From: a virus
Taxonomy: Duplodnaviria; Heunggongvirae; Uroviricota; Caudoviricetes
Length of the DNA: 14,132 nt
Strand: one strand, 5' to 3'
IMG/VR virus record: IMGVR_UViG_2534682295_000006
The notes under the pieces were generated by a model, which ran no database searches, was not told the origin of the DNA, and saw nothing but the letters and a program-made list of their open reading frames with translations. The translations under genes were made by a program, and so were the position numbers. Below, piece after piece: positions 838 to 14,132 of this stretch (positions within the stretch are counted from its first letter, which is position 1; each line of letters opens with the position of its first letter).

Positions 838-2073
838 CTATGATAACCGCGCATTCAACATGGCTACCTGTTCGTCGTTCATGTCATCAATCCACATACC
901 GTAAATTTCATACACCATCTGCGCAGTTTCATGCCCCATTTGGCTGGCTATAAATGCCGGGTTCGCTCCTGCCGTCAACAGCCAGCAGGCAAAAGTATGC
1001 CGCGTATGGTACGGATTACGGCGGCGAATACCAGCACGTTTTACTGCTGCATTCCACCTTGCCCCCAAACTGCTTACCGAGTAATAAGGTTTTTGTTTTC
1101 CGTTACACACCCTGGGCATGAAAACAAAATGCAGTTTTTGCTTTTCGGTTCTGCCGTACTCCCGATGATAAAAGGTGATTTCGCTTTTGCGATGATGCCC
1201 GGTCAGTTTGTATTGCTCCTTCAGTGCTTCAAGAGCAGGCTGCAGTAGTGTTACCGTCCGGATCCCCGCATTTGTTTTTGGGGGACCGAACATATCCAGT
1301 ATCGTCAGGTTTCTTCTGACATTCACAACTCCCTTCTCGAAATCCACATCCTCCCACGCCAGAGCAGCCAGTTCCCCGTGACGAAGCCCGGAGTATACGG
1401 CAAATTTCCACAAGTTCTGGCTCTGTCCTTTTTCACTTTCCATTAATGCATTGAATTCTGTTTTAGATAACGGGTCAGGCTTTATTCTGTTTCTCTGTAA
1501 TTTCTTTACTCCTTCAAATGGTTTGGTTGATATAAATCCCGACTGATACGCAAAACGTAACAACGAACAGAGCAGGGCGATATAGTTATCAACTGTGCGC
1601 ACGGTTCTTCCTTTTTTGTTGGATCTTGGATTATCCAGGTAAAGCGTTTCTCCATGCAGCAGTTCATTCCGGTAGTTTAAGATATCGCTATAACGAATAT
1701 GCGATATCGGAGTACTCTCACAAATTATTATCCTGAGTGTTTTTAATTGTGATTTCGTTTTCTTCATTGTGTTTGTTGTTAACTCTGTTTCTTTAATTTT
1801 TGTCCAGATATCACAAAGCTCCCCGAACGTTTTTATGACCCTCGTTGTCACCATTTTTGCCCCAGTGCTGGACTGGGGAAAACGTCTTAAATACTCAAAC
1901 TCACCGGAATTGATTTCATGAACTATCAACGCTCTTAAATTCCCGGCTTTTTTAATGTTACTGTTAGTAACCTCCCAGCCTTTCAATGTTTCCCGACATC
2001 GTTTTCCTCGAAACATGAACCAGATGCGAATGTATTTACCTCGAATCTCGACACCTGTTGGTAATTTAGACAT
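838..2073 (-). CDS. intR: Rac prophage integrase, tyrosine recombinase, 411 aa
   Basis: Track ORF of 411 aa, matching recalled K-12 IntR length and N-terminus MSKLPTGVEIRGKYIRIWF. C-terminal HTRHT box and downstream conserved Tyr. Located next to ttcA and an excisionase gene. Confidence 0.93.
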   Translation of the reverse strand: MSKLPTGVEIRGKYIRIWFMFRGKRCRETLKGWEVTNSNIKKAGNLRALIVHEINSGEFEYLRRFPQSSTGAKMVTTRVIKTFGELCDIWTKIKETELTTNTMKKTKSQLKTLRIIICESTPISHIRYSDILNYRNELLHGETLYLDNPRSNKKGRTVRTVDNYIALLCSLLRFAYQSGFISTKPFEGVKKLQRNRIKPDPLSKTEFNALMESEKGQSQNLWKFAVYSGLRHGELAALAWEDVDFEKGVVNVRRNLTILDMFGPPKTNAGIRTVTLLQPALEALKEQYKLTGHHRKSEITFYHREYGRTEKQKLHFVFMPRVCNGKQKPYYSVSSLGARWNAAVKRAGIRRRNPYHTRHTFACWLLTAGANPAFIASQMGHETAQMVYEIYGMWIDDMNDEQVAMLNARLS

Positions 2074-2389: not shown

Positions 2390-2590
2390 TCACGAGGACT
2401 GAAGTTTCTCGCAATTAAAATTTATCAGTTTTACTTTCTGCTCTCTGGAAACGCCTGCTTCTTTTTTACCTGAGAGCATTTTTTCGCATTCTGATTTCGT
2501 TAGTTTAGATTTTGAATATCTTGTCCAGTTAGTAGGAGTGCCACCTTCCTTTTCAATAGTGGCGGTAATTTTATACATGAACACCTCCAT
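2390..2590 (-). CDS. ydaC: Rac prophage small protein YdaC, 66 aa from MEVFMYK; alternative upstream start at 2650
   Basis: Track ORF 2390..2650. An internal ATG at 2590 gives the N-terminus MEVFMYKITATIEKEGG that I recall for YdaC. The 5' end overlaps the ralR 3' end. Confidence 0.75.
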   Translation of the reverse strand: MEVFMYKITATIEKEGGTPTNWTRYSKSKLTKSECEKMLSGKKEAGVSREQKVKLINFNCEKLQSS

Positions 2591-7289: not shown

Positions 7290-7507
7290 AGGACTACACA
7301 CAGCAATGTCGTTATTTACAACCGGAGGCGCACTCCCACCATTTAAATTTAACAGACAAGACCGACTCTTTATGGATATCGGAAATGCGCCTTCGTGTTG
7401 TGCCCGGTTTTATTTCACCACCTCCGGGCTTCGGTGGTCTCGGCTATACCCCTACAGCGAGAGCTTGTGTTAACATTTCAATACCCTTACAGTTGAGAGT
7501 TATTGAT

Positions 7508-7996
7508 ATGTTGGATGTATTTACTCCATTGTTGAAACTTTTTGCTAACGAGCCACTCGAAAGACTTATGTATACGATTATCATTTTTGGTCTCACTCTC
7601 TGGCTGATACCGAAAGAGTTTACTGTCGCATTCAATGCTTATACTGAAATACCTTGGCTCTTTCAGATTATCGTTTTTGCCTTTTCTTTCGTGGTCGCCA
7701 TTTCCTTCTCAAGATTGCGAGCACATATTCAAAAGCATTATTCATTACTACCAGAGCAACGAGTATTGCTTCGTTTATCTGAGAAAGAAATCGCTGTATT
7801 TAAAGATTTCCTTAAAACAGGAAATCTTATTATCACTTCTCCTTGCCGTAACCCGGTTATGAAAAAATTAGAACGGAAGGGCATCATTCAACATCAGAGT
7901 GATAGCGCAAACTGTTCTTATTATCTCGTCACCGAAAAATACTCCCATTTTATGAAGTTATTCTGGAACAGCAGGAGTAGACGTTTTAATCGTTAG
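7508..7996 (+). CDS. sieB: Superinfection exclusion protein SieB, 162 aa from ATG at 7508; the track ORF extends upstream to 7385
   Basis: Translation MLDVFTPLLKLFANEPLERLMYTIIIFGLTLWLIPKEF matches recalled SieB. Hydrophobic N-terminal segments. Opposite orientation to the surrounding operon. Confidence 0.88.
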   Translation: MLDVFTPLLKLFANEPLERLMYTIIIFGLTLWLIPKEFTVAFNAYTEIPWLFQIIVFAFSFVVAISFSRLRAHIQKHYSLLPEQRVLLRLSEKEIAVFKDFLKTGNLIITSPCRNPVMKKLERKGIIQHQSDSANCSYYLVTEKYSHFMKLFWNSRSRRFNR

Positions 7997-12594: not shown

Positions 12595-12699
12595 GCCAAA
12601 TTAACAATCGGAACTTCGTGAAGAGAAAGCATAATCCAAATCTGAATAATTAAGTTCAGCACTGTAAATAAAATTTAATCCTTAACTGGAGGTATATTT

Positions 12700-12912
12700 A
12701 TGTTAAATACACAGAAAGCCATTAATGCGGAAAAATATAACGAGTGGGCAAGAAAATTCTCTGAGCAGATTTTTAAAATTACTGGCGATGAGAATGCGGC
12801 AAAAAATGAATTAGAACCGTGGACGCCTGAAGGAGCCGACCCAAATTATTGCTGGAGGGAGGTTGATCCAGTTGATGCTGCAAATGAAGCTATGAGTTAT
12901 CACAACGATTAA
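12700..12912 (+). CDS. Hypothetical small acidic protein, 70 aa, in an AT-richer segment
   Basis: Shine-Dalgarno GGAGG 12687-12691 precedes ATG 12700. 14 Asp/Glu versus 7 Lys/Arg. Hand-counted GC is about 40 percent (85 of 213 nt). Confidence 0.6.
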   Translation: MLNTQKAINAEKYNEWARKFSEQIFKITGDENAAKNELEPWTPEGADPNYCWREVDPVDAANEAMSYHND

Positions 12913-12921
12913 TGTCAGGAG

Positions 12922-12937
12922 GCCGCCCGAAAGGGCG
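12922..12937 (+). terminator. Short GC stem-loop CCGCCC-GAAA-GGGCGG after the 70-aa gene
   Basis: 6-bp GC stem with GAAA tetraloop read directly. The downstream U-tract is weak (UAAUGAAUGG), so terminator function is uncertain. Confidence 0.3.
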
Positions 12938-13024
12938 GTAATGAATGGTCACATTATTTAGAAAAAATATCCGCGAAAGAGTAGAACAACAGAATTTCTG
13001 TTTCTCATTCTGTTTATCGTGTTG

Positions 13025-13162
13025 ATGATACCGATATCCCCGTTAATCCTAGTCTGGATAATCGGAAAAATAATTGAGCCAGTTATTGAATTGTATAACG
13101 ACGTGGTATGGGCGTCATTCAACACACTGCACAATAAAATTAATCCGTATAAGGAAAACTGA
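13025..13162 (+). CDS. Candidate small hydrophobic protein of about 45 aa (MIPISPLILVWIIGKIIEPVIELYNDVVWASFNTLHNKINPYKEN)
   Basis: Manual translation. The frame is open from 12962 and encodes FLFLILFIVL before the ATG, so GTG 13019 or TTG 13022 are alternative starts. Stop overlaps the next ATG (TGATATG). Confidence 0.35.
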   Translation: MIPISPLILVWIIGKIIEPVIELYNDVVWASFNTLHNKINPYKEN

Positions 13163-13163
13163 T

Positions 13164-13427
13164 ATGGCAACTTTGACAAAAAAAGAACGGGCATGGTTGA
13201 ACGAATTACAGGAAGTTCTTGATCGCTGTCCATCACCGAAAAAAATTGGCTTTTACACCATTGGCGATAAAAGCATTTACCTGTATGACCTACGCCGCAT
13301 GGATGAAATCATGGAGGCTCTTGATAATCGTTCGTCGATGGATTGGTGTGTTGCTGTTCATGATATGAATGCAGGGTTTGATGAAAAGATTTTGTTCCCC
13401 TCATCAGTTGAAAGCACTGCGGGTTAA
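13164..13427 (+). CDS. Hypothetical phage protein, 87 aa (MATLTKKERAWLNELQEVLDRCPSPKK...)
   Basis: Shine-Dalgarno AAGGAAAA 13151-13158 precedes ATG 13164. The track ORF 13074..13427 is the same frame extended upstream. Not recognised. Confidence 0.65.
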   Translation: MATLTKKERAWLNELQEVLDRCPSPKKIGFYTIGDKSIYLYDLRRMDEIMEALDNRSSMDWCVAVHDMNAGFDEKILFPSSVESTAG

Positions 13428-13437
13428 GGAGTAACAC

Positions 13438-13599
13438 ATGACCACTATTACCAAAGAACGTATTGAATTGTTCATTAAAAATCCGGTTGAAAACGGGCTT
13501 ACCCGTGGTGAACAAATGGAACTGGCACGGATTGCGCTGGCATCGCTGGAAGCAGAGCCAGTTGGTGATTTTTATGAATACAAACCGGATGACTGGTAG
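13438..13599 (+). CDS. Hypothetical 53-aa ORF ending at a TAG that is in frame with the next ORF
   Basis: Shine-Dalgarno AGGAG 13427-13431 precedes ATG 13438: MTTITKERIELFIKNPVENGLTRGEQMELARIALASLEAEPVGDFYEYKPDDW. Under 60 aa, so absent from the track. Confidence 0.55.
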   Translation: MTTITKERIELFIKNPVENGLTRGEQMELARIALASLEAEPVGDFYEYKPDDW

Positions 13600-13665
13600 C
13601 AGCGTTCGGCTGGAGATAAAGCGCCAAAATGGACGCCACCCTATGCCGTTTTTCCAGCGCCCGTA

Positions 13666-13923
13666 GTGCCGGAAGAAATGGATTTGCTTACATGCCATCT
13701 CGATGGTGTAACTGAAACATATGCTGAGGGATGGAACGCTTGCCGCGCTGCCCTGCTTCAGGGCAAAGGGGAGCCCGGGAAACAAGTTCGCGAATTGACA
13801 ATGCTGGTTAAACAATTGGTTAGTCAACTGAAGAAAGCGAAACCGGGCTGCAAATTGCCGGATAAAGTGATGGACTACCTGGAGCGAAGCGGACTTATAA
13901 GCGTGGAGGATGTTTCACGATGA
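13666..13923 (+). CDS. Hypothetical ORF in the same frame as 13438..13599, with a weak own start (GTG 13666 or ATG 13678)
   Basis: Track ORF. No stop codon between the TAG at 13597-13599 and 13666; no convincing Shine-Dalgarno. Confidence 0.45.
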   Translation: MPEEMDLLTCHLDGVTETYAEGWNACRAALLQGKGEPGKQVRELTMLVKQLVSQLKKAKPGCKLPDKVMDYLERSGLISVEDVSR

Positions 13924-14003
13924 CCTGGCCTGAAGCATTCACAACGGTAGGAATTGCGATGGCGGTGGCGCTGGTTGTGTATTCGATTTGCCGCTGGGGA
14001 TAA
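13920..14003 (+). CDS. Candidate 27-aa single-helix hydrophobic peptide (MTWPEAFTTVGIAMAVALVVYSICRWG)
   Basis: Manual translation. Its ATG overlaps the upstream stop (ATGA). One predicted transmembrane-like stretch. Too short to call confidently. Confidence 0.3.
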   Translation: MTWPEAFTTVGIAMAVALVVYSICRWG

Positions 14004-14132
14004 AAACGGTTTGCGGGAAAAGGATAGTTAAGTAGAATTGCTGCGGGTGCTTGAGGCTATCTGCCTCGGGCATGCCACCGTAAGGCAGACAGAGAAAAGC
14101 CCCAGTTAACATTACGCGTCCTGCAAGACGCC

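Follow-up and report, generated by a model that had tools for sequence, protein, structure and literature searches.

An accessory gene of an Sp10-like lambdoid prophage, very probably inactivated by a single TAT-to-TAG mutation

The window analysed here (the whole stretch of 14,132 nt from IMG/VR record IMGVR_UViG_2534682295_000006, Caudoviricetes) matches an Sp10-like lambdoid prophage of E. coli O157:H7 in its early/replication region, and the match in Sakai falls in ‘prophage Sp10’. Just downstream of the replication genes lies a plus-strand frame that runs from ATG 13438-13440 through TAG 13597-13599 to TGA 13921-13923, that is, 53 codons, the stop, and 107 further codons (161 in all). Between the TAG and GTG 13666 there are 22 open codons (13600-13665) with the frame unchanged. 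The downstream ORF is called from GTG 13666, or from ATG 13678 by PGAP. A preliminary description of this DNA, made from the sequence, had placed ATG 13438, the amber codon, the 22 open codons, and an ORF at 13666-13923 in one frame, and these coordinates are exact. The features of the locus are collected in Table 1.

The two parts of the frame are ECs_1951/Z2391 and ECs1952/Z2390 of O157:H7. In the Sakai RefSeq record only the first ORF (ECs_1951) is annotated, the second being ECs1952/Z2390 in older numbering, and in all TAG genomes sampled PGAP annotates a pair of hypothetical proteins, the second of which begins at ATG 13678. Positions 13380-13980 are 100% identical to Sakai, EDL933, O111, and other isolates. 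Further along, the window has G instead of A at 14009 relative to Sakai Sp10 and its last ~60 nt (beyond ~14070) appear divergent, so it comes from a related prophage or strain. Literature searches on ECs1951/ECs1952, Z2390/Z2391, and EaA/DUF551 yielded a CGH table and a mention in a transcript network, neither with functional or translation data.

Table 1. Coordinates of the split gene, its parts, and adjoining features in the window
Feature	Position	Strand	Basis
Whole disrupted gene, internal TAG included, 161 codons	13438..13923	+	phrog_660 match; homologues continuous
Shine-Dalgarno TAAGGAG, spacer of 6 nt to ATG 13438	13425..13431	+	sequence; anti-SD -8.7 kcal/mol
N-terminal fragment, 53 codons	13438..13596	+	PGAP and Sakai annotate a 53-aa CDS; phrog_660 3-60
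Premature amber codon TAG, from TAT (Tyr) via T-to-G at 13599	13597..13599	+	homologues, genomes
Gene remainder past the stop, 107 codons and TGA, predicted untranslated	13600..13923	+	phrog_660 130-192; no SD
838-bp replacement segment, right junction inside the gene	12693..13530	+	pairwise BLAST, SNP 13536
Unannotated 27-codon hydrophobic ORF MTWPEAFTTVGIAMAVALVVYSICRWG	13920..14003	+	ATGA overlap with the split gene's stop

Several other features of the window deserve mention. The small hydrophobic ORF at 13920-14003 has a strong Shine-Dalgarno sequence of its own (GGAGG at 13905-13909, -9.3 kcal/mol) and is conserved beside the intact copies of the split gene, which have TAT in place of TAG, with some of the differences being synonymous. 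It gave no PHROG match, and may be the gene of a small membrane protein. At 2394-2572 (+) there is a full-length RalA sRNA, the RalR antitoxin (Rfam RF02694, 225 bits; gathering score 170), which suggests that the window prophage has a RalR/RalA type I toxin-antitoxin locus. Toward the right end, 14033-14130 is similar to the sequence that precedes a Hok/Gef gene in TAT-type prophages (L001 3666-3790), and the corresponding stretch of Sakai shows a sub-threshold sok match (50.2 bits; gathering score 59), with no intact hok ORF evident in the ORF listing there. The segment 14033-14130 is probably a degenerate hok/sok remnant.

The family to which the split gene belongs was identified from the two ORFs and from their conceptual fusion. 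The fusion matches phrog_660 over profile positions 3-192 of 193 (E 1.5e-44, 153 bits), with ORF1 by itself covering positions 3-60 and ORF2 by itself 130-192; ORF1 also matches phrog_60 at positions 116-168. Single continuous proteins run collinear with both ORFs and the 22 codons that link them. In a large protein collection, the nearest of these (P0002-P0007) are 162-167 aa long, with 82-86% identity and 100% query coverage, and more distant continuous relatives are 123-129 aa long; those at 57-70% identity keep the Tyr too. Tyr stands at the stop position in 12/12 aligned homologues that share the motif (YEYKPDDW-Y-QRSAGDKAPKW), and the C-terminal 107 residues are those of intact copies except for 1-2 residues. 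Alignment to homologues, which the preliminary description had proposed as a check, thus returns single continuous proteins (123-167 aa) with a sense codon at this place, and copies made up of two genes occur only within the near-identical TAG lineage rather than consistently across the family.

Scans against curated families were less informative. Pfam, NCBIfam, and PADLOC gave no meaningful match for either half or for the fusion, and in Pfam no family, PF04448 (DUF551) included, was returned for the two ORFs or the fusion even at E <= 1. Among relatives that share the N-terminal module, PF04448 is carried by some only, and many matches are named Eaa or DUF551. One database protein was tried as an intact homologue and rejected: P0001 (L004 971-1447, from Logan contig SRR27176603_314) is listed as 100% identical, with Gln in place of the stop, and its encoding DNA has TAG. 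The Gln therefore stems from a gene caller that read TAG as Gln on a contig of 1.4 kb, and the gene does not translate to the listed protein. Entries of this type, in which TAG is translated as Gln by an alternative code, are a database artefact that can pass for intact homologues.

A 61-nt probe centred on the codon matches 275 complete E. coli genomes, 173 of them exactly with TAG and the other 102 exactly with TAT, and no other allele occurs among them. The T-to-G change at 13599 is the sole difference between the two versions of the probe. Among the matches listed, TAG carriers include O157:H7, O111, and other unserotyped isolates, and TAT carriers include varied human, animal, and environmental isolates. 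In the TAT genomes the corresponding position, immediately downstream of the DUF977 gene, is filled by one annotated CDS of 167 aa (WP_000137958.1). Escherichia phage vB_EcoS-673R7 (ON470616) also has TAT for TAG, with only three other differences across 13536-13999. Because TAG is present in 173 independently assembled genomes and TAT in close relatives, the mutation is real and not a sequencing error.

Within the TAG lineage there is very little variation. Of the TAG-type rows sampled, 35/36 are 100% identical over 356 nt, so the allele is young and nearly clonal. TAG and TAT haplotypes lie 1-2 positions apart, and the intact haplotype closest to the window (L018) differs in 13600-13923 (324 bases) at 13916 alone. 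No second disabling lesion was seen in the 107 downstream codons of any TAG copy; since the lineage is nearly invariant, the missing of further lesions is uninformative on selection. As a separate observation, one TAT copy (L014, IMGVR_UViG_2563366939_000004) ends early with a divergent C-terminus, ...KPAANCRIK. Its pattern of mismatches fits a frameshift, and the gene seems to have been disrupted here independently, which hints that it may be dispensable.

Recombination has also shaped this locus. Our haplotype analysis, covering 19 IMG/VR contigs that carry the site together with other fetched loci, shows that the linked SNPs G 13837 and C 13916 are present in every TAG copy. The TAG itself is found behind two N-terminal modules, the 53-codon MTTITKERIELF... 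type of the window and a 59-codon MTELTKKQLIEE... type, the latter being present in all TAT copies. That the TAG stands behind a second N-terminal module indicates that it had a single origin and then survived recombination. In pairwise BLAST against the simpler arrangement, homology is lost at 12692 and regained at 13531, with the breakpoint bounded by SNP 13536. The 838 bp of 12693-13530 stand for ~165 bp of the simpler DUF977-to-gene arrangement in TAT-type prophages, and they bring ECs_1949, a frameshifted DUF4014 pseudogene, ECs_1950, and the new N-terminal module, from which the first 31 codons of the 53-codon fragment derive. The DUF4014 family pseudogene, flagged as frameshifted by PGAP (~12945-13162, +, two genes upstream), is a second decayed gene in this segment.

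The right junction of the exchange (13531-13536) falls in the segment encoding IALASLEAEP, which is common to family members and to Eaa-type N-terminal modules. Two loci (L013 and L019) combine the TAG with the older N-terminus and have the window's downstream flank in common up to 14102, and they are likely to represent the progenitor arrangement. The most economical history, as read from the haplotypes, is one nonsense mutation in the MTELTKKQ... background, followed by an upstream recombination that swapped the N-terminal module. The locus is a small and clean example of lambdoid mosaicism, with an intragenic junction and a dead allele carried through the exchange.

From these observations, we conclude that an accessory gene in the early region of an Sp10-like prophage was very probably inactivated by a single TAT-to-TAG point mutation. 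Close homologues are continuous and have a sense codon, and the stop is derived, confined to one lineage, and reached by one base change. In its ancestral form the gene encoded an unbroken protein of some 161-167 aa with Tyr at the stop position. The preliminary description had offered two accounts of the frame, one gene, some 161 codons long, that a nonsense mutation had interrupted, or a read-through arrangement. The first is borne out by the continuous homologues, by the Tyr at the stop position, and by the TAT of the 102 genomes and the phage. The split gene is very probably an ordinary nonsense pseudogene, recent, and not a read-through device, and there is no new translation biology here.

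How the split gene would behave in the cell can be outlined from its signals. When the early operon is transcribed, ribosomes would start at the strong Shine-Dalgarno sequence and ATG 13438, terminate at the UAG via RF1, and release a 53-aa fragment with an N-terminal helical hairpin, the sole portion of the split gene that is expected to be translated. With no ribosome-binding site of their own, the remaining 107 codons would be translated at most in trace amounts, by near-cognate read-through or by inefficient re-initiation, and the gene would be carried along with the prophage as a recent pseudogene. The TAG is followed by C, which is reportedly a comparatively weak termination context in E. 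coli, so some read-through is expected, and the 53-aa fragment might itself be active. Prophage early genes are repressed in lysogens, and the Sakai Ribo-seq supplements have no entry for the split-gene locus.

Gene fission, in which both halves are expressed as separate proteins and the second is made by re-initiation from ATG 13678 or GTG 13666, would be another way to read the two ORFs, and we consider it unlikely. The anti-SD duplex before ATG 13438 reaches -8.7 kcal/mol and ranks among the top 3.5% of positions. Before GTG 13666 it is +1.2 kcal/mol (97th percentile of all positions) and before ATG 13678 it is -3.5 kcal/mol (31st percentile of all positions), both of which are background, and the remark in the preliminary description that the downstream ORF has no convincing ribosome-binding site therefore holds. 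The two candidate starts lie 67 and 79 nt past the stop, which is far for bacterial re-initiation. In addition, 13600-13680 is identical in the intact TAT copies, so no start signal has evolved, and no plus-strand promoter-like site was found in 12600-14132. While the pair of PGAP proteins in every TAG genome sampled speaks for fission, as does the occurrence of the C-terminal module with other N-termini elsewhere (phrog_924, H61-H63), the absence of any start signal weighs against it.

Fission also draws some support from a predicted structure. An alignment of 45 sequences gave an AlphaFold2 model of P0007, an intact homologue, that is of low confidence (mean pLDDT 56.5, pTM 0.29), and within it only an N-terminal hairpin of two helices (6-22 and 30-44, block pLDDT 67-82) is moderately supported. 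The Tyr is residue 60 of this protein, just past the hairpin and at the start of a Pro-rich segment with pLDDT below 50. On this model the halves may hold whole modules, as fission would have it; however, the low mean pLDDT counts against leaning on the model. Because the stop lies just past the predicted hairpin, the 53-aa fragment would hold the N-terminal module roughly intact.

Another possibility is that the truncation is adaptive rather than neutral, with the 53-aa N-terminal helical module kept as a functional unit, possibly together with a trace of UAG-C read-through product. We consider an adaptive truncation decidedly unlikely. If it were true, the swap of the N-terminal module behind an existing stop would mean selection on the fragment, and the Eaa-type module would act alone, for example as an adaptor or competitor of the full-length Eaa-family proteins of co-resident prophages.

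Programmed or selected leaky read-through is the second of the two accounts in the preliminary description, and it is not supported. Here near-cognate Gln, Tyr, or Lys tRNA would decode part of the UAG, so that most of the product would be the 53-aa fragment and a minor share the full-length protein. All 107 downstream codons are in frame in every TAG copy seen, and the allele is widespread (173 genomes) and has survived recombination, both of which would suit such an arrangement; the intact downstream frame is explained, however, by the youth of a TAG lineage in which nearly all sampled copies are 100% identical. Homologues outside this one near-identical lineage all have Tyr, so the stop is not conserved, and it is UAG rather than the leakier UGA. 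The RNA past the stop is not structured beyond chance (MFE of 13590-13700 -32.1 kcal/mol against a shuffle mean of -30.4 kcal/mol, z = -0.46), and the window has no tRNA gene, hence no suppressor tRNA. Insertion of Q, Y, and K by near-cognate tRNAs at UAG has been described and becomes prominent when termination is weakened, but UAG is efficiently terminated in RF1+ E. coli (PMC4333366). We regard selected read-through as very improbable.

That the split is an artefact or a coincidence (a sequencing error, unrelated genes that happen to share a frame, or TAG used as a sense codon) has next to no probability, being refuted by homology, by the 173 independently assembled complete genomes, and by normal use of TAG as a stop, with the Gln of P0001, the one database protein in its favour, coming from an alternative-code gene call on DNA that has TAG. 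TAG terminates two other long ORFs of the window, 838-2073 (-) and 7385-7996 (+), so the standard code applies, and codon reassignment is not indicated, the ORFs considered having 13597-13599 as the one in-frame TAG examined. Chance alignment of frames had been put at roughly one in ten in the preliminary description, and as an estimate this was good, the computed prior of a same-frame neighbour with 22 open codons being 0.089, which means that the arrangement alone proves nothing. Chance as the actual cause falls with the homologues, to which both ORFs and the linker are collinear.

The main value of recognising this nonsense pseudogene is for annotation, in which it is currently missed. Well over 100 complete genomes have the halves entered in RefSeq/PGAP as ‘hypothetical proteins’ in their own right, WP_000208018.1 and WP_000365100.1. 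Since both halves are one gene with an internal stop, a pseudogene flag is due.

The known proteins closest to that of the window gene fall into two groups. The phrog_660 proteins WP_000137958.1 (167 aa, E. coli prophages) and URC10291.1 of vB_EcoS-673R7 are encoded at the same genomic position, with the replication, DUF1627, and DUF977 genes directly before them. Their DNA is ~99% identical to window 13531-13999, and the proteins are collinear from end to end. They differ from the window gene in being continuous, with TAT (Tyr) in place of the TAG, and in their N-terminal 37 residues, which are a different module (MTELTKKQ...). P22 EaA/‘Eaa protein’ and DUF551 proteins such as HK620 hkaE, on the other hand, have the N-terminal module MTTITKERIELFIKNP.ENGLTRGEQMELARIALASLEAEP in common with the window protein. 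By tblastn, similarity to proteins annotated EaA is limited to fusion residues 1-109 (56% identity) or 1-49 (80%), and it is on proteins so annotated that this likeness rests, as Pfam and NCBIfam hold no curated EaA model; residues 1-47 are 83% identical to hkaE. The window protein is without the DUF551 domain and its C-terminal part is a different module, and the likeness to EaA/DUF551 proteins probably reflects mosaic module sharing, not orthology.

As a phage gene with an in-frame stop between a short product and a longer open frame, the split gene also invites comparison with the coat/A1 gene of Qbeta. Qbeta uses a UGA that is conserved, and its extension is needed for function, whereas the stop of the window is a UAG, with no sign of a stimulatory context, that is found only in one near-clonal lineage.
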